Assembly: GCA_013265495.1 (NCBI GenBank)
Contig: MU057552.1
Coordinates: forward strand, 143,740-163,739
Source of the DNA: Vicugna vicugna
Taxonomy: Eukaryota
Direction of reading: 5' to 3'
Length of the DNA: 20,000 bases
The notes under the pieces are model-generated. The model was given only the letters and a program-made list of their open reading frames with translations. It was not told where the DNA came from and did no database searches. Within the stretch, counting starts at the first letter, position 1, and each line of letters starts with the position of its first letter. The position numbers and the translations under genes were made by a program. Of this stretch, positions 1-20,000 are shown in pieces.

Positions 1-1191
1 CTGAGGATAATAACTAAGTGAAATGAAAAAAAAATCTTCGATATTGTAGCCCAGCCTCTGACAGGAATATTACCTTTAGGGAACACTCCAATATCTTAGG
101 ACGAGGCTTTGTTTGAAAAAGAAAGGAGGTCTCGAGGGAAGATCATCCTTGAACTTCTGGCCCGCAGAGGAATGCTTCACTCAGCCCTACAGATGTGGGC
201 CAAGTGCAGCCCTGATTTCTTCAGGGTTTCAATGGCAAAATTGGTGATTTTCTGTGTTTAGAAATGATTTCTTAATATATACGGAGAAATACATGTTCAA
301 AAACTGAAATCAGCAATATTTTATTATTGTTTTTCTTTTAAAAAAAAAGGCCCTTACAGTGTTAGGAAGGCAAAAAAGTGATAAATAGTTTGGGCTTGAT
401 CTCGAAATTAAAGTACCAGCTGCACTGTCTGGAGGGAAATACGTGGGTGGCAGAACACTGAATATCACCACCACTGCTCTGAATTGTGTTATTAGTCCTT
501 TGCTTTTGGTGGCCTCAACCTCCAGAGGGGTGCAACACCGAATCAGGCATTTTCTCTTGTTCATCTGGCCTCTGTCCAGCTGTGATGGCCGGATCCACAT
601 TTCTGGGCACCAGCGATGAGCTGCTGACCAGATTTCTCTAGCCCTGAGCCTATCGACCTGGCTCCACAGACAGAAGCTTACACGGCAGCTCTGTGTAATA
701 TGTAGGCATAATTATTCATTCTGTTTAACAGAATTCTGAGAGTGTGTGCCCCCCATGGCTTCTTAGCTAGAAAGCTGCAGATGGTCTTTGAAGTACTCTC
801 CTCTCTTCACCGAAAAATAGTTTAGGGCCAAAAGCTGAATATTGATGTCTTTTGCCTAAATTGTCTTTGGCTTCTCCATTGTTTTGTATATTGTTCCAAC
901 CAGAAAAAGGCATCTCAGAAATACAGGGACAAAGTGAAAAGGTAGTATTTTTATAAGGCTCTTGCATGGTAGTTGTTCTCATTACAGTTCATTTTAGGAA
1001 ATGATAGTCACACCACAAATTTCCTACTCTTTGACACAGATTAATTTACACAAAATATAAAGGACAGAGGTATGGGGTGTCTTGGGGATAATCTCCCTGT
1101 ACTCAAAACTATTTGAGCTCTGTTTATTTAATTTTTAAATAGAATTGTTGTATTTAAAATATATGCATTTTAGATACATTTTAAATCTATC

Positions 1192-1270
1192 TTTTTGTTC
1201 GAGGTACTAGTGATGGTACCCAGGACCTTGTGCATGCTAAGTGTGCACTCTACTGCTGAGCTCTACCCCC
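1192..1270 (-). mobile_element. Short tRNA-derived SINE, resembling the camelid Vic-1 family
   Basis: Reverse complement reads GGGGGTAGAGCTCAGCAGTAGAGTGCACACTTAGCATGCACAAGGTCCTGGGTACCATCACTAGTACCTC, with a degenerate Pol III A box (AGAGCTCAGCAG) and B box (GGTACCATCAC), followed by a short A-rich tail. Confidence 0.8.
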
Positions 1271-1761
1271 TAAATATTTTCAGTTAATTTTATTCCATAC
1301 TGGGTAGATTCAAAAGAGTAGAAAATATATTAAAGCTGTCTCCCAGTTTAAGGAAAAGAAAATAACTGTTACCCACAAAGTACTATGTTGAATTTCATCC
1401 TCTCACTTTACACTCTAGAAGTAACAACTACAATAAATACTGATTTTTTAACTTTTTTTATTGAGTTATAGTCATTTTACAATGTTGTGTCAAATTCCAG
1501 TGTAAAGAACAATTTTTCAGTTATAACAGAACATACATATATTCACTGTCATATTATCTTTTGCTGTGAGCACCACAAGATCCTATATATATTTCCCTGT
1601 GCTGCACAGCACAATACTATTTATCTATTCTACATTTTGAAATCCCACTTTGTCCCTTCCTACCCCCGTCCCCCTGGCTACCTCAAGTTTGTACTCTATG
1701 TCTATGAATATATTTCTGTTTTGTATTTATGCTTCGTTTTTGTTGTTGTTGTTGTTGTTTT

Positions 1762-4700
1762 TTAGATTCCACATATAAGTGATTTCATGTGGTATTTTTC
1801 TTTCTCTTGCTGGCTTACTTCACTTAGAATGACATTCTCCAGGTGCAAACACGTTGCTGCAAAAGGCATTACGTTGTCGGTTTTTATGGCTGAGTAGTAT
1901 CCCATTGTATAAATATACTACATCTTCTTTATCCAGTCACCTGTTGATGGATATTTAGGCTGTTTCCATGTCTTCACTATTGTAAATAGTGCTGCTATGA
2001 ACATTGGGGTTCAGGTGTCGTTTTGAAGTAGAGTTCTTTCTGGATATATGTCCAGGAGCGGGATTCCTTGGTCATACAGTAAGTCTATTCCTACTCTTTT
2101 GAGGAACCTCCATACTGTTTTCCACAGTGGCTGCACCAAACTGCATTCCCACCAGCAGTGTAGGAGGGCCCCCCTTTCTCCACAGCCTTTCCATCATTTG
2201 CCATTTGTGGATTTTTGAATGATGGCCATTCTGACTAGCTTGAGGTGATACCTCATTGTAGTTTTGATTTGCATTTCTCTGATAATTAATGATATTGAGT
2301 ATTTTTTCTTGTTCCTATTGATCATTTCTATGTCTTCCTGGGACAATTGCTTGTTGAGGTCTTTTGCCCATTTTTGGATTGTGTTGTTTGATTGTTTCTT
2401 ATTAAGTCATATGAGCTGCTTATATATTCTGGAGATCAAGCCTTTGTTGGTTTCCTTTGCAAAAATTTTCTCCCATTCTGTAGGTCTTTTTGTTTTACTT
2501 ATGGTTTCCTTTGCTGTGCAAAAGCTTGTAAGTTTCATAAGGTCCCATTTGTTTATTCTTGATTTTATTTCTATTGCTTGAGATGACTCTTCTAAGAGAG
2601 CATTTTTGATATGCATGTCAGATAATGTTTTGCCTATATTTTCTTCTAGGAGGTTTATTTTATCTTGTCTTATGTTTAAGTCTTTGATCCATTTTGGGTT
2701 GATTTTTGTGTACAGTGTAAGGGAGCATTCTAGCTTCATTTCTTCACATGTTGCTGTCCAGTTTTCCCAACACCACTTGCTGAAGAGGCTGTCTTTTTTC
2801 CATTGTATATTCTTGCCTCCTTTGTCCAGGTTGAGTTGACCAACTGTTTCTGAGTTCATTTCTGGGCTCTCTATTCTGTTCCATTGATCTACATGTCTGT
2901 TCTTGTACCAATACCATGATGTCTTGATGACTGCAGCTCTGTAGTATTGTGTGAAGTCTAGGAGAGTTATTCCTCCAGGCTCTTCCTTTCTCTTCAGTAA
3001 TGCTTTGGCAATTCTAGGTCTTTGATGGTTCCATATAAATTTTATTATGCTTTGTTCTAGTTCTGTGAAGTATGTTCTGGGTAATTTGATAGGGATTGCA
3101 TTAAATCTGTAGATTGCCTTGGGCAGTGTGACCATTTTCACAATATTGATTCTTCCAATCAAAGAACATGGGATATCTTTCCATTTTTAAGAGTCTTCTT
3201 TAATTTCCTTCATCAATGGTTTATAGTTTTCTGTGTATAATTCTTTCACCTCCTTGGTTATATTTATTACAGTGTATTTTATTACTTTGGGTGCTATTTT
3301 AAAGGGGATTGTTTCTTTAGTTTCTTTTTCTGTTGATTCATCATTAGTGTAAAGAAATGCAACTGATTTTTGAAAGTTAACCTTGTCACCTGCTACCTTG
3401 CTGAATTCTTTAAACACATCTAGTAATTTTTTGTGGACCTTTTAGAGTTTTCTATATATAGTAATGTATCATCGGCATATAATGACACTTTTATGTCTTA
3501 TTTTCCAATTTGGATCCCTTTTACTTCTCTCTCTTTCCTGATTGCTGTGGGCAGGACTTCCAAGACTATATTGAATAAGAATGGTGATATTGGACAACAT
3601 TGTCTTGTCCCAGATTTTAGTGGGAAGCTGTTGTGTTTTTCACCATTGAGTTCTATGCTGGCTGTAGGTTTGTCATATATAGCTTTTATTATGTTGAGAT
3701 ATGTTCCCTCTATACCCACCTGGGTGAGAGTTTTTATCATAAATGGGTATTGAATTTTATCATAAGATCTTTCTGCATCTATTGAGATGATCATGTGGTT
3801 TTTGTCCTTTGTCTTGTTGATGTGATGTATTACATTTATTGGTTTGCATATGTTGAAACATCCTTATGTCCCTGGGATGAACCCCACTTGTTCATGATGT
3901 ATAATCTTTCTTATGTGCTGTTGGATTCTATTTGCTAGTATTTTGGTAAGGATTTTTGCATCTGTGTTCATTAGTGATACTGGTCTATAATTCTCTTTTT
4001 TTGTGGTTTTGATATCAGGGTAATGGTGGTTTTGATATCAGGGTAATGGTGGCTTCATAGAATGAGTTTGGGAGTTTTCCCTGTTTTTCAGTCTTCTGGA
4101 AGAGTTTGAGAAGGACTGGTATGAGTTCTTTGTATGTGTGGGAGAATTCCCTGGTGAAGCCTTCCGGTCCTGGAATTTTATTAGTAGGGAGGTTTTCTAT
4201 TGCTAATATGATTTCATTTCTAGTGATTGCTTTGTTCAAGTGGTCAGTTTCTTCTTGATTGAGTCCTGGTAGACTGTATGTTTCCAGAAACTTGTCCATC
4301 TCTTGTATGTTATCCATTTTGGTTCCATACATTTTTCATTATATTCTTGTATGATATTCTGTATTTCTATGATATTTTTTGTAATTTCTCCATTTTCCTT
4401 TCCTATTTTGCTTATTTGTGCTCTTTATTTTTTCTTTGTGAGTTTGACCAGAGGTTTGTGGATTTTATTTACTCTTTCAAAAAAGCAGCTTTTGGTTTGA
4501 TTGACATTTTTCTGCTTTTTTAAAATCTCTATTTTATTTATTTCCTCCCTGATCTTTATTATTTCCTTCCTTCCGCTGACTTTTGGGTGTTTTTGCTCTT
4601 CTTTTTCTTGTTCTTTTAACTGGTGGATTAGACTGTTTTTTCTTCTTTTATGAGGAAGGCCTGCATCACCCTAAACTTCCCTCTTAGCACTGACATTGCT

Positions 4701-5556
4701 GCATCCCATAAGTTGTGTGTGGTTGTGTTTTCATTTTCATTTGTCTCAGGGTATTTTTTAATTTCAACTTTGATTTCCTCATTGACCCATTTTTTTTAAT
4801 AGCATGTTGTTTAATCTCCATGCTTTCCTTTTTTTCTTCTTTGTTTCTCTGTAGTTGATTTCTAGTTTCATGGCATCGTGGTCAGTAAAGATGCCTGAGA
4901 TAATTTCTATCTTAAAATACTTGAGGCTTCTTTTGTGCCCAAGTACATGATCAATCCTAGAAAATGTTTCATGCACACTTGAAAAGAATTTGTATCCTAT
5001 TGTTGGGGGGCATAATGCTCTGAAAATATCCACTAAATCTAATTTTTCTATTGTACCATTTAGTTTCTCTGTTACCTTATTTATTTTCTGTCTGGAAGAT
5101 CTGTCTAGTGATGATAATGCGGTGTTAAAATTTCTGACAATGATTGTATTCCCATCAATATCCCCCTTATCTCTGTTAGTAGTTCTTTTAAGTACTTAGG
5201 TTCTCCTATTTTGGGTGCATATATATTGATGATTATAATATCCTCATCTTGTATTACTCATTTAATCTTTATAAAATGTCCTTATTTAACTTTATGGCCC
5301 TTGTTTTAAAGTGCATTTTGTCTGAAATCAGTACTGTTACACCTGCTCTTTTGGCTTTTCCATTTGCATGGAATATCCTGTTCCATCCTTTCACTCTCAA
5401 TCTATATGTGTCCTTCTCCCAAAAGTGTGTCTGTTTTATGCAGCATATTGAAAGTTCTTGCTTTATTATCCAGTCTGCCACTCTACATCTTTTGACTGGA
5501 GCATTTAGTTCATTAAAATTTACTGTAATTAATAATAGATCAGTGTTTATTTGTAT
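1762..5556 (-). pseudogene. Decayed L1 ORF2 (endonuclease / reverse transcriptase), broken by frameshifts and stops
   Basis: Start-equivalent position at about 5556 (ATA CAA ATA AAC ACT, aligning to the MAINT-type N-terminus with ATG lost). Ends ...EKYHMKSLICGI* with stop at 1764-1762. Span about 3.8 kb, as expected for full ORF2, but split into many short ORFs in different frames. Confidence 0.92.
4003..4052 (+). repeat. 23-bp perfect tandem duplication inside L1 ORF2
   Basis: GTGGTTTTGATATCAGGGTAATG at 4003-4025 and 4026-4048, followed by GTGG. Confidence 0.95.
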
Positions 5557-5824
5557 TTTGAACTTATTTTTGCATTTGATTTGGTATTTCCTCTTTGCTC
5601 CATTCTTCTTCCTTTTGTGGCTTGGCAATTTTCTTTTGTATTATCTTGGATTGTGTTTAGTTTTTGTGAGTCCCTTGTAAGTTTTTGACTTGTGGTTACC
5701 CTTTTTTGTAAGTCTATTAACTTATTACTGTAACTGTGTGTACTAAATAGATAGTAATATAATCTCAAACCCATCCTACAGAGATTAAAAAAAATTTTAC
5801 ACAAAAGAAAGAAAAGAAAATACT

Positions 5825-6652
5825 CAGAGAAATGCAAATCAAAACTACAATGAGGTATCACCTCACACCATCAGAATGGCCTCATTCAGAAATCCATGAA
5901 TGACAAATGTTGGAGAAGCTGTGGAGAAAGGGGAACCCTTCAATACTGCTGGTGGGAATGCAGTTTGATGCAGCCACTATGGAAAACTGTGGAGATTCCT
6001 CAAAAGACTAGGAATAGACTTAACATATGACCAAGGAATCCCACTTCTGGGCTTGTATCCAGAAGGAAATCTACTTCAGGATGACACCTGCACCCCAATG
6101 TTCATAGCAGCACTATTTACAAAAGCCAAAGCATGGAAACAGTCTAAATGTCCATCAACAGGTGACTGGATAAAGAAGATGTGGTATATTTATACAATGG
6201 AATACTACTTATCCATAAAAACTGACAACATAATGCCATTTGCAGCAACGTGTTTGCACCTGGAGAATGTCATTCTAAGTGAAGTAAGCCAGAAAGAGAA
6301 ATGAAAATACCATATGAGATCGCTCATTTGTGGAATCTTAAAACAAAAACAAAAACAAACAAACAAACAAAAACAAAGCATAAATACAGGACAGAAATAG
6401 ACTAACAGACAGAGAATACAGACTTGTGGTTACCAGGGGGGTGGAGGGTGGGAAGGGATAGATTGGGATTTCAAAATTGTAGAATAGATAAACAAGATTA
6501 CACTGTATAGCACAGAGAAATATACACTCACAGAGAATGTGACAGTGAATGTGTATATGTCCATGAATGAGTGAATAATTGTGCTGAACACTGGAATTTG
6601 ACGCAACATTGTAAAATGATTATAAACCAATAAAAATGTTAAAAGAAAAGAG
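5825..6652 (+). mobile_element. 5'-truncated LINE-1 3' end nested in the host L1 in opposite orientation
   Basis: Encodes ORF2 C-terminal motifs (CTPMFIAALFTKAK.WKQ.KCPS, WIKKMWYIYTMEYY). Has 3'UTR, AATAAA at 6629-6634 and an A-rich tail. Flanked by a 12-bp direct repeat AAAGAAAATACT (5813-5824 and 6653-6664). Confidence 0.95.
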
Positions 6653-6664
6653 AAAGAAAATACT

Positions 6665-7308
6665 TCATATTTTCTTGCTTCCCTTTCCCACTCTTAAAGA
6701 TTTAGAAGTCCTCTTTTACAATTTTGTTTTTATTGCATTTGTAAAGCATGGTGGTTATCACCTTTCTGGTTATGAGTTTCTCATTTTTGTAGCATCCTGC
6801 TTCTTTTCTATTTAGAGCAGACTTATCAATTTTTTTTTATCATGGGTTTAATGTTGATAAACTCTTTGAGTTTTTGCTTGTCTGTGAAGATCTTTATCTC
6901 TCCTTCTATTCTAAATGATTGCTTTGCTGGATATAGTATTCTAGGCTGCATTTTTTTTTCATTCAGGACTTTCAATATATCTTGCCACTCCCTTCTGGCC
7001 TGTAGTGTTTGTGTAGAGAAATCTGCTGAGAGCCTTAAGGGGTTCCATTGTAACTCTCTCTTTGTTTTCCTCTTGCCTGAAGGCATTTAGGATCATTTCT
7101 CTATCCTTGACTCTGGCCAACTTGATTAGGATATGTCTTGGTGTGTGTCTGTTTGTGTTCTCCCTGTTTGGCACCCTCTGATCCTCCTGAACTTGGATAT
7201 CTGATTCCTTCTTTAGGTTTGGGAAGGTTTCAGTCATACTTTCTTCAAATACCTTTTCATTCCCCTTTGTTCTTTCTTCCCCTTCTGGAGCCCCTATTAT
7301 GTATAGAT
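6665..7308 (-). mobile_element. LINE-1 host element continued: inter-ORF spacer and C-terminal half of ORF1
   Basis: Minus-strand ORFs give ORF1p RRM/CTD motifs: TPRHILIKL, RLSADFSTQTLQARREWQDILKVL, QPRILYPAK.SFRIEGEIK.FTDKQKLKEF. Confidence 0.93.
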
Positions 7309-7589
7309 TTTTTAAAAATTTTTTATTGATTTATAATCATTTTACAATGTTGTGTCAAATTCCAGTGTTCAGCACAATTTTTCAGTCATTCATGGTCATA
7401 TACACACTCATTGTCACTTTTTTTCTCCGTGAGTTATCATAACATTTTGTGTATATATCCCTGTGCTATACAGTGTAATCTTGTTTATCTATTCTACAAT
7501 TTTGAAATCCCAGTCTATCCCTTCCCACCCTCCACCCCCCTGGTAACCACAAGTCTGTATACTCTGTGAGTCTATTTCTGTCCTGTATC
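7309..7589 (-). mobile_element. Short LINE-1 3'UTR/polyA fragment abutting the truncated 5' end of the host L1
   Basis: T-rich tail, then TTTTATTGATTTATAATCATTTTACAATGTTGTGTCAAATTCCAGTG; a close reverse-complement match to about 6384-6640. Confidence 0.92.
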
Positions 7590-8020
7590 CATTTTTAATT
7601 AGGAAGAAGAGCATGTTCCATTTACCACCTGGGGAAAGTGTATACCTATAACACTTTATGCAAGTGCTCTTTTTCTGGGTAAGAACCTGCCACAGACTTT
7701 TTAAAATCTAATGTGAAATGCTGAGAAAACTGAAAGTCAAGCTGGGAACTATGTAGTCTCATAGAGGAAGCTGTTTCCGGAGAACATCTGTGCCAACACA
7801 GGGAGCCACTCTGGAAGTTCCACAGTGTCTTCTGCTCACAGTGCTTCCCCCAATTCTTTTCACCTCATTTGTTCAAGTCAGATCAGTGGTTTAGGATTCT
7901 TCAGGGTCTGATTAAGAGAACAGAACGAGGCACTAAGAATTCTAAAATTTTCCAAGAGTAACAACAAAGGTAAAATGTCTAAGAATAGCCTAACCAAAGG
8001 ATAATAGGAACTATCAAAAT

Positions 8021-8067
8021 AAATACATACATACATACATACATACATACATACTTGCATACATACT
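8021..8067 (+). repeat. (TACA)n microsatellite
   Basis: About eight consecutive TACA units, then an interrupted continuation. Confidence 0.95.
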
Positions 8068-8842
8068 ACTGAAAGACATAAAAGATACTATAAACACATG
8101 ATTCTAGATTAAAAGACCATATCTCCAAAATATCAGAACTTATAAAATTGACTTGGGGTTTATTGTGAATAAAATCATATTAGTAATATAATAATAAGAT
8201 AATGACAGTTTCACTAGCTCAAGAATAGCCAGATTAGAGAATAGGACAGGAAGTCCAAATATGGGCTCTGATATCAATAATAATTTAATATGCAAGATGG
8301 AAGGAATTACAAATCAGGGAGGTAAATAAAGGTTATTCAATAAATGGAATACTTATTAGCTATTTGGGGGAAAATGTAAATATTGAAATCATACAGTGAA
8401 TTATATATTGTGACAAATTCCAGAAACATTTAAAAAAGTAACACAATTAGAAAAATACTAGAAATAAATATGGATGAATATACAACCTCTAGATGTGTAA
8501 TAAAATTCAGAGGAAAATATATAAAGATTTCCATGCCTCAGAAGCATCCTAAGTTTAAACAAAACACCAGAGGATGTTATTTGTTAACAAATCTGACAAG
8601 GGACTAATTCCTTCAATACATAGAGAGTTCAGATCACTTCAAAGATAACACCAAAAAAATCTCAGAAGCGGAGAAGTCAAAGATGAACACACATTCACAA
8701 AGGAAATAAGTAGATGTCAGGCTCCAATGTAATTCAGTCAGTGCACATCAAAATGAAATAGTTTTCCACCTCTTAAGTGACATAGCTCTGTTTGAGGATG
8801 AAGTGCCAGTAATCACCAATCCCATGCCTAGGCTGCTGGATA

Positions 8843-8893
8843 TTTTTTGTGAAGTATGGTTGATTTACAGTGCTGTATTAGTTTCCGGTGTAC
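8843..8893 (-). mobile_element. Very short L1 3'-tail fragment
   Basis: TTTTTTGTGAAGTATGGTTGATTTACAGTGCTGTATTAGTTTCCGGTGTAC resembles the L1 terminal motif also seen at 18696-18752. Confidence 0.6.
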
Positions 8894-9334
8894 TCCTCCA
8901 GCCTTCTTAGAAAGCAGTCTGGCAGTTCATCTCAAGAGTCAAAAATATTCATATGCTTTAATCCACTAATTCAGCTTTGAAAAACTTTTAATCAGGAAGT
9001 ATTTCAAAAAGGCAGGGAAAAGTCAGTATGGATGTAAGTCACAGGCATATTTTTATATGTATATATATAAAATCTTAGCCAAAATATTCTTCCAACCCTT
9101 CACATAGTAAAATATTATGAAACCATGAAAAAGTGTGTCCATGAAAATATTTTATGACATGTCAAAGTGTTATGCTTATGATAGGCTTGAGAATAAAATT
9201 AATATATAAAATGATTTTTAATATACAAACAATGAACAGTCCTGAAGGAATTATATCTATATGTAGAAGAATTTTTCTTATTTTATTTTTTATTCATTTT
9301 CAGAGTTGGAGTCTTTTGATTGTATATGACAAAA

Positions 9335-9877
9335 TCAATCTCCAATGTATTTAAACAACAACCAAAAAATGGGGATGGATGGTATTTATTGGTTCCTGTA
9401 AATGAAAACCTCAGGTCTGAGGTCTGGCTTCAGTCAAGGAGAGATACTGTAGCCCATATGATGTCAAGGGCTGGTTTTGTCCTGTCTTCATTCTGTGTCC
9501 AAGGGTGTCTCAGCATGCTGCTTCTAGGCACACAGCATCCCAGATCACACATCCATCCAAGCCAAGAGAGGTCTCTTTTGGCAGCTTCCTGTCTTGATAG
9601 AGGAAGCTCATCATTCACATGGGCACCAGCACGTATCTCCTGACAACAGTGGCTCTTAATGAGTTATTTGCCAATTCTCAAATCATGTGCGAGGCCAATG
9701 AGGGGTATTATTTGTCTTAAACCAACTAAGATCTACCTCTGGTGCTTCAGAAAGAGTGGGTCAATCAAGCTTAAATCACAGGACTAAATATAGAAGGGAG
9801 GTTATTTATCCTAAAGCAAAATCTGGGTCCTCTTCTAAGACTGGGGACAGATCCAGGACAGCAGTTCTGTCCACTAC
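9335..9877. mobile_element. Ancient ERVL/MaLR-type solo LTR (MLT1/LTR33-like)
   Basis: Motifs GTATTTATTGGTTCCTGTAAATGAAAA..GGCTTCAG near the start and CTGTCCACTAC at the end; about 540 bp. Subfamily not resolvable by eye. Confidence 0.55.
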
Positions 9878-10082
9878 TGAGTACTTTCAAATTTTCTTTA
9901 ATGAGCAAATATTAAAATTATGATCAGAATAGATGATATGTAAGAAGAAACTTGAGGAAGGAGAATGGAAAGCTTTCCTGTTTCTTAAGAAATACTGAAC
10001 CCATTAAGTGCTTGGAAGGATAATGGAAATGTGTCCAGTTTGTAAATGTTCTGAAATGAATCAGAATTGATTTCACACACCA

Positions 10083-10320
10083 TGTAGGAGGCAGTGCTCT
10101 ACAGTTAGTGTGTCTTTGGGCTCTTTGGGTATTTCAGTTCTTTCACTTAATAGTTGCTTCATTTGGGGCAAATTGCATCATCTCCCAGTGGCTCTATTTC
10201 CTCATATGTAAAAGAGATATAACGTTACCTTCCCCACAGGGCGATTGTGAGGATTTAGAAAAATAGATGTGTGCTGAAGCAATAGTAAGCATTTAAAGAA
10301 TTTTAACTATTATGATTATT
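10083..10320 (+). mobile_element. MIR SINE
   Basis: Core GGGGCAAATTGCAT..CTCTATTTCCTCATATGTAAAA..ACCTTCCCCACAGGGCGATTGTGAGGATTTA and a TATTATGATTATT tail. Confidence 0.8.
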
Positions 10321-10628
10321 AATACATAATTAAAAAATTTATTATGCAGACTTTTTAAAAATGCGTAGTATTTAAATGGCCTATATGTGGTGTACAAGAG
10401 AGGAAGGCTTAATGTAAATTCTACAATACATTTTTCTCAGCCTTAACTAATTTTCACATTTAATCACACACACACACCAAAAAGTTATTCCTTTCACAAG
10501 GATGAAGTCTTAACTGTGAAGAAAAGGATAATGAAAGAGAGTAGAGGAGGAAATAAAATGCTTTCTCTACAAACTCATGGCTTAACAACTAAGAAAAACA
10601 CCTTTTTAAGACTTTGGTCACCATATTC

Positions 10629-10850
10629 ATAGCTAATACTTAGGCAGAGTTTTTCACATGCCTGTGGTTAATGTTCTAATTGTTTTCACAATTCGTACAT
10701 CACTGACTCATCACAATAATCTTATAAATTGCTATTATTATCCCCCCATTATATGGGTGAGGATATTGAAGCCCCTAGAGGTTAAGAAATTTGCACAAGG
10801 CCCCACAGCTAGCATTGGAGTTGGGATCCAGATGCAGGAGTGTGGCTCCA
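10629..10850 (-). mobile_element. MIR SINE
   Basis: CCCCATTATATGGGTGAGGATATTGAAGCCCCTAGAGGTTAAGAAATTTGCACAAGGCCCCACAGCTAG matches the reverse MIR core. Confidence 0.85.
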
Positions 10851-11574
10851 GGAGGGGTTGTAAACACTCCCTCTGCTCTCCCCTGCAGGTGCAAGCCAGC
10901 CTCCCGCTGTTACTGTAAATAACATGATGTGGTTCACTGTCTTGAAATTCACATTCTTTGTAGCTTTCTCTCTGGGGAAGCCATCAGAAACAGCCAGGGA
11001 CACTGAGTACATGCTTCTGGACTATGACCAAGAAGGTAGATGGAAGGAAAACAGTTTAAAAATGGGATCTTTAATGTGCATTCTTCAGTGGTCAGAAAAA
11101 TCCTGCCTAGTGAGGAGCTGAAGCCCTATCAGCCACGTGCAGATTATGCTTCAGACACCCCCGTTGCCCTTGGGTCCACACAGTCAGAACTACAGTGGAT
11201 CAGGGAAATGAATCTTGTGCAAATGCAGGGAGTATGAATACCTGCCATTTTAAGATCTCAAGGAGTATGAAAAGCATGTGAAGCTTTCATCAGCAGAGAC
11301 CTGCTGTCACTTCCAGTATTTCCCTCATGGCATGTCCGCAGATTCACTGGTCCTTTTCAGAATGAAGACGACAGCTAGCACCTGCTGACCCCTGAATCAG
11401 TGATAGCTTCTCCCTTGAAAGGAAGCATATCCCCTTCATGGGTTACAACTAGTTCATAACGTAAGTAATTCTATAGATGTAGAAGGGATATTTTCATTGG
11501 TTCTGCTATCACAGAATTGTCTCAAAAAGAACATGCCACCAGTTACTCCATTGTCACCCATTTAAAGATATACT

Positions 11575-11700
11575 TAACAGGCTTCCTTTTTTAGTGCAGT
11601 TTTAGGTTTACAGAAAAATTCACAGAAAGTGGAGTTCCAATATACACCCTATGCCCTGCACACAGCTGCTCCTGCTGTCAGCATGTTACATTAGTGGATG
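11575..11700 (-). mobile_element. Old L1 (L1MC-like) 3' end fragment
   Basis: TTTTTTAGTGCAGTTTTAGGTTTACAGAAAAATT..GAGTTCCAATATACACCC terminal motif. Confidence 0.7.
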
Positions 11701-11924
11701 CACTCATTCTTTTAGGCATCCTTCATTCCTCCTCCCCTAAAGTTTAACATGCCTGATATTCACATCTCTTGCGGCATTTATGTGCGATTTACATCACTTC
11801 TCATGTTTACATGAGGTTTACAGCACATGCATGTTGTCTGTTCAAGCGTGGGTTGGGGGCAAGTTTTCTGTGTAAAAATACGATCATTAGTGAGTCTCAT
11901 TCTGCTGGGTTTTTGGGTTGTCAG

Positions 11925-12149
11925 GTCCAGATGACCATTGCTTCAGTTATTGGGATCATGGTCTACGGACTCTCAGTGTTGATTGTAATTTCTGCAAAAC
12001 TTCCCAAGCCTGAATGGAAGAGACCCAATCCAGTAGTACCTTACTGTGCAGATTGGCCATGCCCATCACTGCTTCCCTCATCAGTTTTATCATCCTCATG
12101 ACCCTGAAAGCCATATATGAGAAAGTGGCAATCACAATGACTGACTCTG
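11925..12149 (+). pseudogene. ANO6: ANO6/TMEM16F-like pseudo-exon (about human exon 13), 225 bp
   Basis: cag| acceptor and |gtaagc donor. Conceptual translation VQMTIASVIGIMVYGLSVLIVISAKLPK-(fs)-LNGRDPIQ*YLTVQ-(fs)-MAMPITASLISFIILMTLKAIYEKVAITMTDS matches recalled ANO6 ILLIIASVIGIIVYRLSVFIVFSAKLPKNINGTDPIQKYLTPQTATSITASIISFIIIMILNTIYEKVAIMITNF. Apparent -2 nt near 12009, TAG at 12034-12036, +1 nt near 12054. Confidence 0.92.
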
Positions 12150-13205
12150 GTAAGCTCCTCCTGCAGCTGAAGTCATTTCTACGCCACTTTTAGAACCAGG
12201 TCAAAACAGAGACTGTATCTTTTAGGCACTTCAATTCCAGTATATTACAGTCTTTAGAAAACTTCAAGTGTATACCTATTTCTCTAGCCTATATGAGAAG
12301 TTAACTAGCTCCAGCTTTGCATTAGTAAAAAGAACAAAGGAAGCATTAGAATGTCCAAGCTGTGTGTAAACAGGTCAGTGTTGAATAATAAATTCAATTA
12401 CATTACATCACGTTCCCTATTGTTGAAAATAAATAGTCTCTTTATTGCAAATAAGTGGAAGAGGGTCGTGGTTCCAGTGGCAGATTTGCTTGTGTGTTAC
12501 GGAGAGGACAAGTAATCACAGTGTTATGTGTCTTCCCCCAATGCTGTTCCTGTTAGTGTAGTTCCATTCTCATTATCTATAGCTTCTATAATAAATGTTT
12601 CTTCTCTCTGGCTTGTATCCCAGCCAGCAGCTTAGTGGCCCAAGTGCTTCCCACACGTGGCACGTGGCTGGGTCGTTCTCCCAGTGGTTTGCTCAGTAGT
12701 CATCTTCTGAGAACACTAAGACCATTTCAAATTCTGAACTAGGAGGATGACCCGTTTTATGTTACCCAATTTCTTCTAGCAAGTTGCCCCGTGTTTTGTT
12801 TGTTTTCTTTGATAGTCCTACTTTCCTGCCCTTCAGGGAGAAAAGAGAATATCATTTAGCAGGATATTCAAACTAGTTTTCTGTCAGCTTACACCTGACA
12901 GGGGACATTTCTTGCCATTGGATACTGTTGTGCTTATAAATTTTAAGGAACTGCTGACTTTTTTTTTTTTTTTGCCTTGTGGGATATTGCATTCACAGTG
13001 GGAGAAACTCTTAAAACAGAGTGTACACTTGGAATTAACATAGTAACTATGTTAAGGAATTCACAACAGCTTAAATGAAAACAATGTGAACTGTGTATAT
13101 ATATATACATATTTACCATGTTAACTCATGTGTCTGTGCCTTTGATTAGGGTCTCAAAGCCGTTCACAGTTTTACAGACTTACCTTTTCTTTATTCTAGC
13201 TGCAG

Positions 13206-13374
13206 AGCTCCCAAGGACCAGACTGACTGTGAGAACAACCCAGCCATGAAGGTGTTCTTGTTCCAGTTTATCAACTACTACTCTTCGTGTTTCTAAATCG
13301 CATTCTTTAAGGGCAGATTTGTGACTTATCCGGGAGATCCGGTGTATTGGCTGTGAAAATACAGAAATGAAGAG
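13206..13374 (+). pseudogene. ANO6: ANO6-like pseudo-exon (about exon 14), copy 1, 169 bp
   Basis: Polypyrimidine tract and tgcag| acceptor, |gtgtga donor. ELPRT-(fs)[49 protein letters not shown], with TAA at 13294-13296 and TGA at 13354-13356. Confidence 0.95.
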
Positions 13375-13552
13375 GTGTGAATACAGCTTTGTGTTCTGAC
13401 AGTCTAACCTGTTTCATGTTTTCTCTTAGTTGCCCAATGAAGAGTGTCTTTACTGTCTGTTCCTTAGATTTTATTTAGGCATAAAATAATGACTTTATTT
13501 CATGTTAGAGCTATCTAAAATTTAAATGAGAGTTTTCTTTCTAATATTCCAG

Positions 13553-13623
13553 TCTGACCCAGGTGGCTGTCTCCTTGAACTGATGACACAGCTGACAATA
13601 ATCATGGGAGGACAGTCCATCTG
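13553..13623 (+). pseudogene. ANO6: ANO6-like pseudo-exon (about exon 15), copy 1, truncated at the duplication junction
   Basis: ccag| then [23 protein letters not shown]; breaks inside the Trp codon and continues into duplicated intron sequence. Confidence 0.93.
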
Positions 13624-13823
13624 AACTCTTAAAACAGAGTGTACACTTGGAATTAACATAGTAACTATGTTAAGGAATTCACAACAGCTTAAATGAAAAC
13701 AATGTGAACTGTGTATATATATATACATATTTACCATGTTAACTCATGTGTCTGTGCCTTTGATTAGGGTCTCAAAGCCGTTCACAGTTTTACAGACTTA
13801 CCTTTTCTTTATTCTAGCTGCAG

Positions 13824-13992
13824 AGCTCCCAAGGACCAGACTGACTATGAGAACAGCCAAACCATGAAGGTGTTCTTGTTCCAGTTTGTCAATGACTACT
13901 CTTCATGTTCCTACATCACATTCTTTAAGGGCAGATTTGTGACTTATCCAGGAGATCCGGTGTATTGGCTGTGAAAATACAGAAATGAAGAG
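13824..13992 (+). pseudogene. ANO6: ANO6-like pseudo-exon (about exon 14), copy 2, 169 bp
   Basis: ELPRT-(fs)[50 protein letters not shown]. Shares the 1-nt deletion and the TGA with copy 1 but lacks the TAA. Confidence 0.95.
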
Positions 13993-14168
13993 GTGTGAAT
14001 ACAGTTTTGTGTTCTGACAGTCTAACCTGTTTCATGTTTTCTCTTAGTTGCCCAATGAAGAGTGTCTTTACTGTCTGTTCCTTAGATTTTATTTAGGCAT
14101 AAAATAATGACTTTATTTCATGTTAGAGCTATCTAAAATTTAAATGAGTTTTTTTTCTGATATTCCAG

Positions 14169-14266
14169 TGTGACCCAGGTGGCTGTCTCCTTGAACTGAT
14201 GACACAGCTGACAATAATCATGGGAGGACAGTCCATCTGGAATAACATACAAGAGGTGTTACTTCC
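14169..14266 (+). pseudogene. ANO6: ANO6-like pseudo-exon (about exon 15), copy 2, complete 98 bp with mutated donor
   Basis: [33 protein letters not shown] matches the anoctamin pore-region motif; followed by ATGAGT instead of GTGAGT. Confidence 0.95.
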
Positions 14267-14271
14267 ATGAG

Positions 14272-14355
14272 TACTAAGTCATGTGATCTTGGGGTGAGAA
14301 CGGCCCACCCATCCAAGTCATTTTCCTGCATTCCCATCTCTAAAACAGGGGAGAC
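14272..14355 (+). mobile_element. Possible MIR fragment
   Basis: TACTAAGTCATGTGATCTTGGGG..TTCCCATCTCTAAAACAGGGG resembles the MIR core. Confidence 0.45.
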
Positions 14356-14616
14356 TGTCTGCTTATTAAAGGTCTCCAGATAAGATGATCCAGCCAACAG
14401 TGTAAACGTACCTGCTGTTTAATAATTATGCTTAAATACCTTCCTTTTAATGTTTAACTTAAATCCCCAAGTGCTATAGTTTCTGTTTATTAGCCCATCA
14501 CTGGGGACTGACTGATAAGAGCCCTTTGAGTGATGGCCCTTGTTGGGTCCATGATCTAATGTTTTCCACAAATCCCCACAACTTTCTCCTCCTTTTATAC
14601 ATGCATTTAAAATATG

Positions 14617-14855
14617 ATAAGAGGAATTTGTTGAGTGCCTAGTATGTGCTAGTCACTGTACTAAATGTTGTACATATATGTGTGTGTGTGTGTGTGTACA
14701 GTTTAATCACTCAAACAATCCTTACTCTTATCTCCCTTTTGCAAATGAAGATCCTGTGGCTTAAAGAGGGTAAATGATTTGCCCAAGCTCTCATTGCCAA
14801 TAAGACAACTGTGGGACTCAGATGTAAGACCCTATCTCTCTGAATCCAGGTTCTT
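14617..14855 (-). mobile_element. MIR SINE with embedded (TG)n at about 14679-14697
   Basis: ATTTGTTGAGTGCCTAGTATGTGCTAGTCACTGTACTAAATG..CCCTTTTGCAAATGAAGATCCTGTGGCTTAAAGAGGGTAAATGATTTGCCCAAG. Confidence 0.85.
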
Positions 14856-15091
14856 CTAAGAACAGAGGCTCTCTTGGGGTCCTAAGGTACAAGGTTACCT
14901 AATGTTTTAAGAGAAACTTGTCTAAAATAATAACTACAGAGGTTTTGACTTACTGCTCTCTTCCTAAAAATGAGAAAAGTAGATGTTAGCTTAGGTCACC
15001 CTGTCCTTTTGATTTTCACATAAGCCCAATCCCCTGTCAAAGCAGACAGTCCAGTGTTATCTGCAATTTCTGCACAATTCAAGGAGGTTAC

Positions 15092-15536
15092 TGTATTTGC
15101 TTTCTGTTGCTGCTGTAACACGTATCCCCAAACATCATGGTAGTAGGAAGAAAAAAGAAAAAGTCTCCACTAAACAACACAAATTTAACCTTGTAGGGTT
15201 CTTGAACGCAGAAGCCTGCTGAAGTCAAAGTGTTGACACGGCTGTTTCTGAAGGCCTCAGGGGAAACTGTATCTTTGACTTTTCTGTCTTCCAGAGGCCA
15301 CCTGCGTCTCTTGGCCTGTGACCTCTTTTCTCTGTCTCAAGGTCAGCATGGTTGTGTGCCTCTGACTCTGAACCTGTGGTCAGATCTCCTCTCCTCTCTC
15401 CCCTCTTCTGCCTCCTTCTTCCTCCTTTAACGACCCTGGTGATTACACTGAGCCCAAATCTATAATCCAGCTGGTCTCTCTTAGAGTCGACTGGTTAGCA
15501 ACCTTAACCACATCTGCAAATTTTTCTGCCTACCAC
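15092..15536. mobile_element. MaLR solo LTR (MLT1-type)
   Basis: Starts TGTATTTGCTTTCTGTTGCTGCTGTAACA, contains AAACAACACAAATTTA and GAAGTCAAAGTGTTGACACGGCTG, ends TCTGCCTACCACA (TG...CA termini). Confidence 0.85.
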
Positions 15537-15789
15537 ACTAACCTTTCTAAGAGAATTTCTGGCTTTGAGTTCCTGTTCTCATGAAACTGTTGATCTCTCT
15601 TCTATCTTGCCTTCCACACCAGCATTCTGCTCCTGGTCAACCTAACGGCAGAGCTAACCCCTCTCAGTGGTGTCCCCCAAAACCACTTATACAAGCAGGC
15701 CTTACTGATGTTTGGAGCATGGAGGAGAAACTCAACTTGAATTTTGAAATAAAAACATCCATCATTTTAAAATCTTCCATGCCACTATA

Positions 15790-16050
15790 AAAAAATTTAT
15801 TTTTAACTTCATTTTTTAATTTTTAAACTATTTTAAACTTTGTTACTTTTTTTAAACTTTACTTTTTTTTCTTGTCATCCTTCATTCTAGGCTCCAGAAA
15901 CCTGCTATTCTGCCCACCGATCCAAGTTCCCTTTCATTGTTTCTCCTCCCTTCCCTAACCTTCCTTCTCTCTCCCTTACTACCAAGTTTCTGTCCATTCT
16001 CCTTATAGGGCAGTTAAATTCTTTTTTCTTTCTTTCTTTCTGTTTTTCAG
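15790..16050. repeat. T-rich / pyrimidine-rich low-complexity tract
   Basis: Repeated TTTTAAACT-like units at 15798-15870, then CT-rich runs. Confidence 0.6.
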
Positions 16051-17659
16051 AGTGAACACCTTTGGGTGTCAGTGTGTCCTTCCACATTTCTTCACAAGGG
16101 CTTCACCTTCAGCTTCAGTATGGTTTACTGGGGTCTGTCTCTAAGCAAAGGCATTTCCCTCGTCCCCCAGCTCACCACGCCCCTCAAAAAAAGATTCTGG
16201 TCTTCGCTGTGAAATTAATTATTTTTTCCATACTGTGCAGTAGGCAACTCTTACCCTGAGTTCACAGTCGGATTTTTCCAGAGAAGTAAAAGTAGGTCAT
16301 GTGCAAATAATACTATTTTTCTTTGTGAAAAGAAATAGATCAGATAGAGGAAATACTTAACTCAGGTTACCCAAAGCATTTCCTGAAGGAAATAGGTTAA
16401 TTATTTAACGCTAAATTTTGTTGAATCTGGTTGTCAGTGAGCTATTTTAACCAATCAAGGAGAAGGATATATTTTCTAAATTAGTACTGAGAAATTCATG
16501 TGAAATGAAACTTATTCACATGGACTAGTTTAAAGTAAAGGATGCATTATAGTATCTGTGGTCTGTTTTTACCTTTGCTTAAGTAAGCATATTGTTGTAG
16601 GTTCCAGTGAGCTGAATTTTGCCTCCATGTATTTCTACTATGGGCTAAAATATTTAGGGAATATGTTTTGAATTATGTTTACCTTGTTTGAAAACCAGGA
16701 ATGCTGAATGGTAGCCAAGTTCGTGGGTGGCTTGTGTCTTCCTCACTGCCTCTTCTGTTTGTATAAGGTGCCAGTTCCCTTCTTATTTTTTTCATATAAA
16801 ATCCTAACATATCAAAGATCTATCAGTTACTCTTGCTATGCCAAATCTATACCCATCCTCAAAAATACATAGGAAGGGAAAAGAAAACTTATCAAAATTA
16901 GCGACTATTTTCATGCTATTTAAATATGTCTAAAGGAACATAATGAAATGAATTTCACCATAAATCACCTTCTTCCACCCCCCAATTCCATGTGGGGTTC
17001 TTCAGTAGGATTCTGGGAGCAAATGAAGAAGGACAGTGATGCCGTGATCCAGGCTCCCTCTGGGGTCCCCGAGCACTTGGATCGGCACCTGGTATAAAGT
17101 AGGTCTCAGTCCGAGCCAGCTGAGTGAGTGAGTGACTCACAGGCATCAGTGAATTAACAGCATTCTTTGTGGGACTCAGAGAATAAGCTGCAAGCCCTGT
17201 GGCCTTCCCAGTCTCACATACTATTTTGATATTGGGATCATTTCTGGGAATGTAATTCTGTACTTGACAAAAGGCTAGTACAATTCCAGGGTTAAGCAAC
17301 TTGCCCTGGAGAAATTTTATGACAAAGTATTAAGAAAAATAGTTAAATGCCCAAAATGGCACAGAATTGTCCTTTGGTGTTTAGATAAGGTATGGCTGTA
17401 ATTTTCTTACTTTATATGTTTTCTACATTTTCCACTGTGGGTATACACTATTATAAAATAAGAAAAAGAAAATCTCTCTTTTCCAGATACGATTTGGTTA
17501 GAGGATGAGTCAGAGACATGTAATAAGAGAATCTTAAATACATGTGTCCCTAATTCTTTAAATTCAGGAACAGGAAACTCAGGAATGAAATAGATTTAGA
17601 GAATCAAAGATACTTGTATTCAAGATTAGCAAGTGGAAGTGTCCTCAACAGAAGTGGTG

Positions 17660-17770
17660 GTAATCTATAATGCAGGGATTAAATGTGATAATGCAGGTAC
17701 AAACACAACATGAAGTAGAAAATACCACTTGGCAAGCACTGAGTAAAGTGCAATTTACTTTGATTATGCT
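17660..17770 (+). mobile_element. Possible MIR 3' fragment
   Basis: GGGATTAAATGTGATAATGCAGGTACAAACAC..AAGCACTGAGTAAA resembles the MIR 3' segment. Confidence 0.5.
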
Positions 17771-17849
17771 AATATGTGTGGTCAAATCCCAAGCAAATGA
17801 TTGTGTAACCCCTGCTAGAGGGAGAAAGCTTCCAGCCTTGGCTGGAGAG

Positions 17850-17925
17850 GGGGGAGGATCCAGTGTCTGTATTTTTTAAAATGTCTACAGGTGCTTCTCA
17901 TGTGCAAATTGATATCCCTGCATGA
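17850..17925. mobile_element. Possible MER5-like hAT DNA transposon fragment
   Basis: GTCTGTATTTTTTAAAATGTCTACAGGTGCTTCTCATGTGCA resembles the MER5A arm motif. Confidence 0.5.
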
Positions 17926-18695
17926 GAACCATAACCCAACCGAAAACCCAATAGACTGAGGACCATGATGGGTAGATGACAGCCCAAGCTTTTCTGCCAC
18001 AGATGAGTGGTTCCACTCAGGAAGGCTGAGCAAGAGGCTCAGAGTCTTAGCTAAGGACAAGCAAGTCGGGACTTCTAATATGACCTAATGCCATCAGCTG
18101 GGAGGGGAGTTCAGCACAAGAAGGGAGCGCCAGATGAGTTAGCATGGAAGTTTCATCCTGGATCCAAACCGTGATGGATTTGGGTCCCATAGGATAAAAG
18201 TCCTGCTTCCCTGAGACATGGACCGGATTCCACAAGAGGCTGAGACAGGAAGTATGAGGCAGAGAAAAATTCCCCCAGGACACTCCCGAGTCTGGGTGCC
18301 AGGAAGGGTAATGGACAAGCGTGGTCCCAGCACCACTCGCACCACAGGGCCCCGAGTGGCTGTGGAGCTCTGCATTCCTGGCCAAACCTCAGACCTGATT
18401 GCAGTGCTCTGGGCTGCAGCCTGCGGAGTGGCTTCAGCAGCAGGCTGTCCCTGTCATTCTCATAGGTGCTGCAGTGACCCCCACCCCTGTGGCCACAGTG
18501 TCCCCAAGCCAAGGGTCTAAGTGACTTCAACCTTATTTACAGGTGACCACAGCCGGTTAGCCTGTGCTGCTCAAAAGGAAGATCCCACATGGGGTTTTGA
18601 TGTTAGGGGGTTTGCTAATACCTCACCTGCTTTGAATTGTTTCATCCTGACAGCAGCCTGGGCAGTGGAAGTTTCATCTCCCCATTTTATTTCAA

Positions 18696-18774
18696 CTTTT
18701 TTTGTCGGAAGTATAGTTCGTTTACAATATTGTGCTAAATCTTGGTGTACAACATAGTGATTCAGTTATATATG

Positions 18775-18808
<34 letters not shown>

Positions 18809-18891
18809 CCTTTTCATATTCTTTTTCACTATAGGCTACTACAATGTATTGATTGTAGTTCCCTGTGCTATACAGTAGGACCTTGTTGTTT
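18696..18891 (-). mobile_element. L1 3'UTR tail fragment with internal (TA)n at about 18768-18806
   Basis: TTTTTTGTCGGAAGTATAGTTCGTTTACAATATTGTG..GTAGTTCCCTGTGCTATACAGTAGGACCTTGTTGTTT, a typical L1 3' end. Confidence 0.85.
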
Positions 18892-18989
18892 GATGCAAAA
18901 ATTTCTAGACAATTTGCAAACTAAATCTAGCCATGCATATGACAGAGTTCAGTTTATCTCAGGATTTAAATGTGGTTTTGGTCTCTGGG

Positions 18990-19275
18990 ATCTCTTTATC
19001 AATTTATCATAATTAAAGAGCCTATGGACCCCTTTTCAGAAAAATGTTTTAAAATCATAAGATTTAGAGAATATAGAAGGAAGATAATTATACTGAAAAG
19101 CAGATATCAAAATATAGAAATGGACACTTGTGATACAGTAACATCTGAATTATTGGAAGAATGTGTTGAATAAAAGGATCCAGGGGTGGGTCTACTAACC
19201 GCAACATTCTGCCATAGCAGTGAGTGTAAATCATTTTCTGAGATCTGCAACAATTGCATTTTGAATGTAAATAAA
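18990..19275. mobile_element. hAT-Charlie-type DNA transposon remnant
   Basis: AGAGCCTATGGACCCCTTTTCAGAAAAATGTTTTAAAAT..AATTATACTGAAAAGCAGATATCAAAAT..GAGATCTGCAACAATTG motifs. Subfamily and ends uncertain. Confidence 0.6.
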
Positions 19276-19538
19276 GTTAAATAACAAATAAGCCATGAAG
19301 TGTGGATTCAAATTCAAGGGTATCTTGAGTCCATATCCCCATCACTTCCCAGAGCTCCCTGCTCTTCTCCTAATATCATTGAAAGAAGTGGAGAAAGTTT
19401 GCTAAGCGAAGGGCATGTTCCATTGCAAAGAAATCTCGTAGCAAACCTGGAAGCGTGGTCAGTGAACAGTTAACGCTGAGATCAGAGGCAGTAGGAAACC
19501 TAGCAGGGGCAATTCTTTAAAGGTCACATCATATACTC

Positions 19539-19580
19539 TGTGTGTCCGTGTGTGTGTGCATACACATGTGTGTGCATGTA
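19539..19580 (+). repeat. Degenerate (TG)n / alternating purine-pyrimidine tract
   Basis: TGTGTGTCCGTGTGTGTGTGCATACACATGTGTGTGCATGTA. Confidence 0.8.
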
Positions 19581-20000
19581 CAGTGTATACACCAGCCTTT
19601 TGTGTGAAGCCTCCTCATTGTCTAAATTTGAAATCCATCCAAAAGTGCAATGCAGTCAGCCAAAGCTCTGCCAGATGTTCAGTTGTCTGTTGCTGCTCTG
19701 TCTCTTCTGCTGAATTCCATGAGTAAACCAATTGCCAGCTGTTGCTTTCAGGGACAACAGCTTTGTAGGCTACAGGTCCATGCCTTGTTTCACTGTCAAC
19801 TCTGATTTCTTTTCAGGACAAATTGCCATTTGAAAAAGAGAGAAGCATTCAGTTGACCCACAAGCCTCTGAGTGAGGGAAAAAGACAACCTTAGACACAG
19901 CTCTGTGGGACAGCATCCAGGAGGGGGCAGAGCACTGGGCTGTGAGTCGAGGCTGTATTTCTTTCATGTTCTGCACTGACTTTGAGGCGGTATGTCACTT

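Follow-up and report, generated by a model that had tools for sequence, protein, structure and literature searches.

The stretch of DNA analysed here, which we call the window, is 20,000 nucleotides long and comes from Vicugna vicugna. At positions 11925-14266 it carries exons and introns derived from ANO6 (TMEM16F), the gene for a Ca2+-activated phospholipid scramblase. The window very probably lies in one copy out of a large family of ANO6-derived pseudogene fragments of the non-processed type. In order to describe the damage, the three exon types (A, B and C) were aligned to the same genome's own ANO6 exons on contig C5495, and lesions were called relative to this parent. A full-length protein named ANO6 from Heterocephalus glaber (P0004), reached from a 412-amino-acid (aa) fragment via a cluster look-up, was used as a protein query. 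The ANO6-derived features of the window are as follows.

7603-7677, forward strand: ANO6-like exon upstream of exon A, matched in tblastn by P0004 aa 438-462 (64% identity, E 3e-5 to 9e-4)
11925-12149, forward strand: exon A, ANO6 aa 462-538, acceptor AG and donor GT retained
12150-13205, forward strand: intron between A and B, 1056 bp, homologous to the parent intron
13206-13374, forward strand: exon B, first copy (B1)
13375-13552, forward strand: intron between B1 and C1, 178 bp
13553-13623, forward strand: exon C, first copy (C1), which stops after 71 of 98 bp at a duplication junction
13824-13992, forward strand: exon B, second copy (B2)
13993-14168, forward strand: intron between B2 and C2, 176 bp
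14169-14266, forward strand: exon C, second copy (C2), full length

The upstream exon sits at the start of a collinear block that covers 7593-13623. Exons B and C are present twice because a 618-bp unit has been duplicated in tandem.

The lesions were compared across copies in a family alignment of exons A-C and their introns, taken from the window, 21 of the 43 other loci of the family and the parent. Exon A carries a 2-bp deletion at 12008/12009 that is confined to the window copy and a TAG at 12034 that is present in 3 of 17 copies. It also has a +1 insertion near 12053, which is shared by all 17 copies covering the site. One base is missing from exon B (ACCCAG has become ACCAG) near 13219 in the first copy and near 13837 in the second. 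This -1 frameshift is found in 23 of 23 rows, and exon B1 has a TAA at 13294 that is seen in the window only. A Gly codon of exon B has changed from GGA to TGA at both 13354 and 13972, and every one of the 23 rows has a stop there (21 TGA, 2 TAA). The donor after exon C2, at 14267-14268, reads AT instead of GT through a CpG to CpA change. Across copies this donor is GT in 14 of 21, AT in 5 and TT in 2; since it lies on a CpG site it has probably mutated more than once. Three frameshifts, three stop positions and a lost donor thus fall within three exons of the window copy, and the fragment, to judge by its sequence, would encode no scramblase. The founder of the family was itself dead before it was amplified, because all sampled copies share the +1 insertion, the -1 deletion and the Gly-codon stop.

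These exons, intron lengths, stops, frameshifts and the lost donor had all been listed in the original prediction, made from the letters of the window alone, and each was found in its place when we read the window against the genome's ANO6 exons. Its description of the locus as a multiply disabled copy of ANO6 holds relative to the parent. The exons do descend from ANO6 and not from another anoctamin. In a phmmer comparison with PDB, exon B2 matched ANO6 chains with E-values of 9e-19 to 2e-17 (about 1e-18) and ANO1 with only 2e-8, and it matches the Pfam Anoctamin domain (E 5e-13). There was no ANO5 among the PDB matches, and the contrast of ANO6 with ANO5 is drawn from the genome's own loci: within the genome, exon B is 84% identical to the exon on C5495 and 63% identical to that of a paralogous anoctamin on C4815. 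The introns are also collinear with the ANO6 locus.

The copied piece is far larger than the three exons that had been proposed. We compared by blastn 80 kb of C381, the contig that holds the window (1-20000 of the window corresponds to C381:143,740-163,739), with 80 kb of C5495; 60 kb of C7120, which hosts another copy, was also used. The whole window is contained in the following feature.

C381:133,213-178,791, forward strand: ANO6-derived segmental copy

This copy is collinear with C5495:3,480,331-3,538,001 (57.7 kb), with a DNA identity of 82-85% for introns and exons alike, so that the copied piece comes to about 58 kb and about 15 exons. The matching stretch of the parent includes the exons for aa 94-802. 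Exon-level tblastn searches with P0004 agree with blastn, and place remnants of the exons for ANO6 aa 94-798 in the C381 copy, the exons for aa 1-93, 333-437 and 803-931 being absent. It had been suggested that neighbouring exons be looked for beyond the window edges, and these remnants are the exons in question; the window lies wholly within the ANO6-derived copy, because collinearity and exon remnants extend beyond both of its sides. A processed retrocopy is rejected, as had been predicted: the introns are present, homologous to those of the parent and of matching length (1056 bp and 176-178 bp), and the parent gene lies elsewhere in the genome.

How often the fragment occurs was determined by exon-level protein searches of the assembly (2.03 Gb in 12,405 contigs); a DNA search with the whole window scored 6 of 43,263 candidates. 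With a 45-aa core of exon B as the query, 58 candidates were scored and gave 49 matches: the parent on C5495, three matches at other anoctamin loci (C4815 twice, C10921) and 45 family matches. The latter lie at 44 loci, since two of them are within the window, and 34 of the 45 share the same 68-aa open frame. The amplification of further exons was probed with a partial ANO6 (P0001) and with P0004. Counted by hand, there were about 38 family matches for the exon for aa 285-335 and 36 for the exon for aa 116-214. All family counts are lower bounds, giving at least 44 loci. A whole-assembly count of intact against disrupted loci had been proposed as a check, and it yields one open parent on C5495 and at least 44 decayed family loci. 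The suggestion of a decayed paralog arising by segmental duplication is therefore right as to origin and wrong as to number, the window being one of at least 44 loci.

Two items encountered during the counting deserve mention. A 540-bp match on C7168 was considered as an intronless copy and rejected, as it most likely reflects an alignment running into the intron (35% identity, 7 stops). P0002, an 88-aa protein that a public collection lists for a contig of 1208 bp, runs from intron sequence into exon B and ends at the shared stop. Compared by eye with the window translation only, it is taken for an annotation artefact, apparently a translated family copy.

The copies abut satellite DNA. A query placed across the 3′ end of the ANO6 homology gave 43 matches from 40 scored candidates (out of 17,056), and these take two forms. 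In the short form, 33 of the 43 matches end at a single point, query position 610-621. The long form is found on C5723, C2325, C10364 and C9118, which match the whole query, like C381. Past the ANO6 break (C5495:3,538,001-3,538,106) the long form resumes in sequence homologous to C5495:3,581,581 onward; C5495:3,581,581-3,582,684 and L013:5418-6500 are 88% identical, and this site is 43.5 kb further downstream in the parent. The founder therefore had a 43.5-kb deletion or was assembled from two pieces. At the 5′ end, copy-to-copy homology begins at the ANO6 boundary in C2134 and C4877. In C7120 it reaches about 245 bp past the boundary, and in C381 a long interspersed nuclear element (LINE) insertion interrupts that point.

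On six contigs (C4877, C6690, C6542, C8618, C6382 and C8623) two short-form ends lie in opposite orientation, 6.8-10.2 kb apart. The spacer on C4877 is flanked at both ends by ANO6 sequence that runs up to C5495:3,537,555, within the exon for aa 739-802, and its 7 kb are made up of a 249-bp satellite, with one array running in from each side and the two, of opposite orientation, joining at the centre. The same satellite occurs 3′ of the C381 copy, and matches at the 249-bp period are 72-78% in these arrays.

L049:283-7314 (C4877:75,182-82,213): 249-bp satellite, opposed arrays meeting at about L049 position 4600
L014:1-10000 (C381:183,740-193,739): 249-bp satellite 3′ of the C381 copy, opposed arrays meeting at about L014 position 6445

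Three junction monomers used as a query matched 10 contigs, 8 of which also hold ANO6 fragments (11 of 1026 first-look candidates were scored). The position of the satellite junction is common to C7854, C4354 and C11069, and the junction-proximal monomers are 88-91% alike between the copies on these three contigs and about 80% alike between the two arms on C4877. The fragment and the satellite were amplified together, because the satellite-bearing contigs mostly hold fragments and the junction monomers are alike.

Inverted tail-to-tail pairs on six contigs, in a part of the assembly that is fragmented around the copies, raise the question of whether the family is an ampliconic array of a sex chromosome (Y or X palindromes) and not an autosomal pericentromeric block. 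The arms of classical sex-chromosome palindromes are more than 99% identical. The arms on C4877 are old by comparison, with about 80% identity in their first satellite monomers, and their exons B are 80% and 69% identical in aa to the query; no co-amplified intact gene was seen. Since its arms are old and diverged, the family is not a classical sex-chromosome palindrome, and we consider a sex-chromosome ampliconic array unlikely.

The divergence between copies helps to characterize the history of the family. Under the Kimura two-parameter (K2P) model the mean distance from copy to parent is 0.144 (0.129-0.154, n=22), and the median distance from copy to copy is 0.085 (0.018-0.106, 231 pairs), the minimum being that between C810 and C4368. 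A tree of 23 rows is star-like: the branch between parent and family is 0.096, the median end branch is 0.036 and 10 of the 20 inner forks are unresolved. The window copy is sister to C9118 in this tree. Copy-to-copy p-distances are 0.068 in exon columns and 0.081 in intron columns, and the copies have decayed close to neutrally. This pattern, as read from the sequences, suggests that a single founding copy died and was later amplified in a burst. If a neutral rate of 1-2.2e-9 per site per year is assumed, the founder would date to about 33-72 Myr and the burst to about 19-42 Myr. As for the closest pair, the copies on C810 and C4368 differ by just 1.8% K2P, which may reflect a recent duplication or two haplotypes that were assembled separately.

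It could be asked whether the fragments have been retained as RNA, with palindromic arrays serving as sources of antisense or small RNAs, of the PIWI-interacting (piRNA) type, directed against ANO6. Inverted pairs could yield double-stranded RNA, and divergence is slightly lower in exon columns than in intron columns. There is also a precedent of a kind in the marmoset, where four pseudogenes are reported to lie antisense within piRNA clusters, including ANO6-P1 in a testis cluster (PMC4105748). ANO6-P1 resembles our family in its parent gene and its repeat-rich locus, and it differs in coming from another species. Among sequencing runs, five of RNA type hold 6-10% of the sampled words, which we do not use as evidence of expression, as such small shares may come from the conserved parent gene or from DNA carry-over. 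The list of 24 runs further includes 14 that are of DNA type or untyped, under five organism codes, with 22-32% of the sampled words each and none reaching half; one more run, guessed to be RNA, holds 15%. None of these shares is used as evidence of expression or of the family's presence in other species. The near-neutral divergence and a star-like tree with long end branches and no homogenisation argue against retention as RNA, which we hold to be very unlikely.

A bolder idea joins several of these strands. The dead ANO6 fragment of about 50 kb and the 249-bp satellite might together form the unit of a lineage-specific, megabase-scale inverted-repeat array in (peri)centromeric or sex-linked heterochromatin, with hairpin-prone transcripts that feed small RNAs acting on ANO6 in the germline. 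This we regard as a long shot.

It is highly improbable that the window is instead a decayed paralog of single or low copy number, left by one tandem or segmental duplication and multiplied only in appearance by haplotigs or a redundant assembly. Many copies do lie on small contigs (the contigs of 20 stretches range from 1.4 kb to 3.7 Mb), and the 1.8% that separates C810 from C4368 would suit such a reading. However, the median K2P distance between copies (0.085) is far above allelic variation, the copies differ in structure, as do those on C381 and C7120, and several of them lie inside contigs of 0.3-3.7 Mb. C7120 was also considered as a haplotig twin of C381, with which it shares a 100% identical exon B protein. 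This was rejected, as the two contigs are 86-92% identical overall and structurally different.

The functional ANO6 is apparently the parent on C5495, which is intact for the assembled exons. On this contig (8.06 Mb) there are exon matches to aa 25-52, 50-94 and 95-931 of P0004, with 79-94% identity and no in-exon stop. The exons for aa 25-52 and 50-94 are found on C5495 only, besides one weak match (44% identity) at the paralogous anoctamin on C4815. The family never contained a complete gene, because the exons for aa 25-94 are restricted to C5495 and the last exons are absent from the copy. Aa 1-24 of P0004, which are acidic, were not detected on C5495. The place of the exon for aa 251-287 is taken by a 1673-N gap (C5495:3,483,621-3,485,293), and the copies on C381 and C7120 still carry this exon. 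Aa 803-832 of P0004 have no match in the parent locus and are also absent from the aligned mouse ANO6 chains, where GLGNYTLC is followed directly by RYRDF; they are probably a quirk of the predicted protein, an intron read-through and not a lesion. Downstream of ANO6, at a distance of 227 kb and on its strand, the contig carries an exon with an ARID domain (C5495:3,770,845). This exon fits the ANO6-ARID2 neighbourhood of human chromosome 12 and is a candidate for ARID2.

That the window might be the orthologous locus, with the scramblase lost in this lineage, had been offered as the less likely but more striking alternative on account of its several disabling lesions; we give this almost no credence, as the better locus on C5495 reads open for aa 25-931, save for the gap exon and aa 803-832, and has the ARID exon downstream, while the window copy has no exons for aa 1-93 or 803-931, is 14% diverged from C5495 and is one of 44 such loci. 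Within what the assembly shows, the idea that ANO6 was lost is refuted.

The window copy has also had a history of its own. A decayed, near full-length LINE-1 (L1) element at 1448-7400, on the reverse strand, occupies the place of 22.5 kb of parent sequence. With that sequence went the four exons for ANO6 aa 333-437, and collinearity breaks between parent positions 16936 and 39483. The protein domains of the L1 (reverse transcriptase and ORF1) and the tandem duplication are located as follows.

3501-3863, reverse strand: RVT_1 (Pfam)
6829-7086, reverse strand: Tnp_22_dsRBD (Pfam)
6962-7330, reverse strand: Transposase_22 (Pfam)
13004-13623 and 13624-14240, forward strand: tandem duplication of a 618-bp unit, units 96-97% identical

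Each 618-bp unit contains the last part of an intron, then exon B with the short intron behind it, and the greater part of exon C. The two units differ at 21 sites, 11 of which are within 13229-13300. Two exon B matches 618 bp apart occur on C381 alone among the contigs matched. At 13811-14072 (forward strand), 262 bp of the second unit are identical to the C7120 copy, and the flanks differ by about 12%; this tract may be the result of interlocus gene conversion or of a chimeric assembly of a multi-copy region.

Two further observations concern local repeats. On C7120 the exon for aa 640-671 is duplicated locally, at 578,348-578,443 and 583,188-583,283, 4.8 kb apart. In the window, 18613-20000 (forward strand) is repeated at 100% identity (1.39 kb) at C381:164,741-166,128, past a 1001-N gap that starts directly after the window. 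The latter repeat is probably an artefact of gap-filling, scaffolding or assembly.

Parentage, copy number, shared lesions, satellite adjacency and inverted pairs are read directly from the assembly, and the following course of events would account for them. About 58 kb of ANO6, spanning the exons for aa 94 through aa 802 and the introns between them, would have been copied once to another place, without the 5′ exons and the last exons. In this founder the reading frame would then have been broken; exons A and B by themselves account for at least two frameshifts and a stop. Later, a burst of amplification would have carried the dead fragment, along with an adjoining array of the 249-bp satellite, to at least 44 loci, often as inverted tail-to-tail pairs centred in the satellite, and the copies would have decayed almost neutrally from then on. 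In the window copy itself, an L1 would have taken the place of four exons, a 2-bp deletion and two more stops would have arisen and a donor would have been lost, in addition to the 618-bp duplication of exons B and C and a short tract from another member of the family. The spread may have come about through recombination or replication errors in satellite-rich heterochromatin.

Several points weigh against this account. The lesions, the tandem duplication and the copy number all come from this one assembly, and the three-exon sequences cover 21 of the 43 other loci. The lower divergence of exon columns (0.068 against 0.081) may reflect weak constraint or an effect of composition. The intactness of the parent applies to its assembled part, given the gap over the exon for aa 251-287 (1673 N) and the undetected aa 1-24. 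The term heterochromatin is used solely on the ground of satellite adjacency, and the satellite junction was read at sequence level in one contig and is placed by coordinates elsewhere. Finally, the arms on C4877, at about 80% in the first satellite monomers, are unlike those of classical palindromes.

The family matters first of all for annotation. More than 40 ANO6-like loci in this genome are dead fragments, and they should neither be annotated as genes nor taken as a sign of ANO6 loss; the scramblase gene that is relevant to biology of the Scott syndrome type is the C5495 locus. The copies are also a trap for read mapping and variant calling at ANO6, and those who assemble and annotate this genome would do well to note how many copies there are, how large the unit is and that inverted pairs are centred in the satellite. 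Furthermore, the family is a datable case of a gene fragment that was carried with a satellite and amplified as inverted pairs, and may be useful as a marker of heterochromatin evolution in the lineage. A literature search on ANO6 pseudogenes and their amplification found no account of an amplified ANO6 fragment, the marmoset piRNA paper being the only related item.

As a type of object, a pseudogene family formed by segmental duplication is ordinary, and it is the copy number that is unusually high here; nothing suggests a new mechanism. With ANO6 itself the family shares the source of its exons: they follow the order seen in the genome's own gene, and the introns agree with that gene in position and length. 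It differs from ANO6 in having no open frame, in lacking the 5′ and 3′ exons and in occupying 44 loci, and the window copy also lacks four internal exons.

Among long-range repeat clusters that are built on gene fragments, the mouse Sp100-rs cluster is similar in having tens of copies of a unit that is tens of kb long and includes part of a normal gene. Unlike that cluster, our family shows no fusion gene or open frame, and its copies differ by about 8% and are dispersed over many contigs. The palindromic amplicons of mammalian sex chromosomes also consist of large inverted repeats around a short spacer, whereas here the arms are diverged, the spacer is a satellite and no intact testis gene family was found. 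A good parallel is offered by the non-processed gene-fragment duplications in the pericentromeric regions of primates, such as the human fragments of ABCD1/ALD (exons 7-10), NF1 and FGF7/KGF, which are described by a 'seeding then swapping' model. There, too, a euchromatic piece with exons and introns was copied once, is non-functional and spread beside satellite DNA, with star-like relationships that are younger than the founding copy. The ANO6 family differs from these in its higher copy number (at least 44), its larger unit (about 45-58 kb) and its many inverted pairs centred in the satellite.

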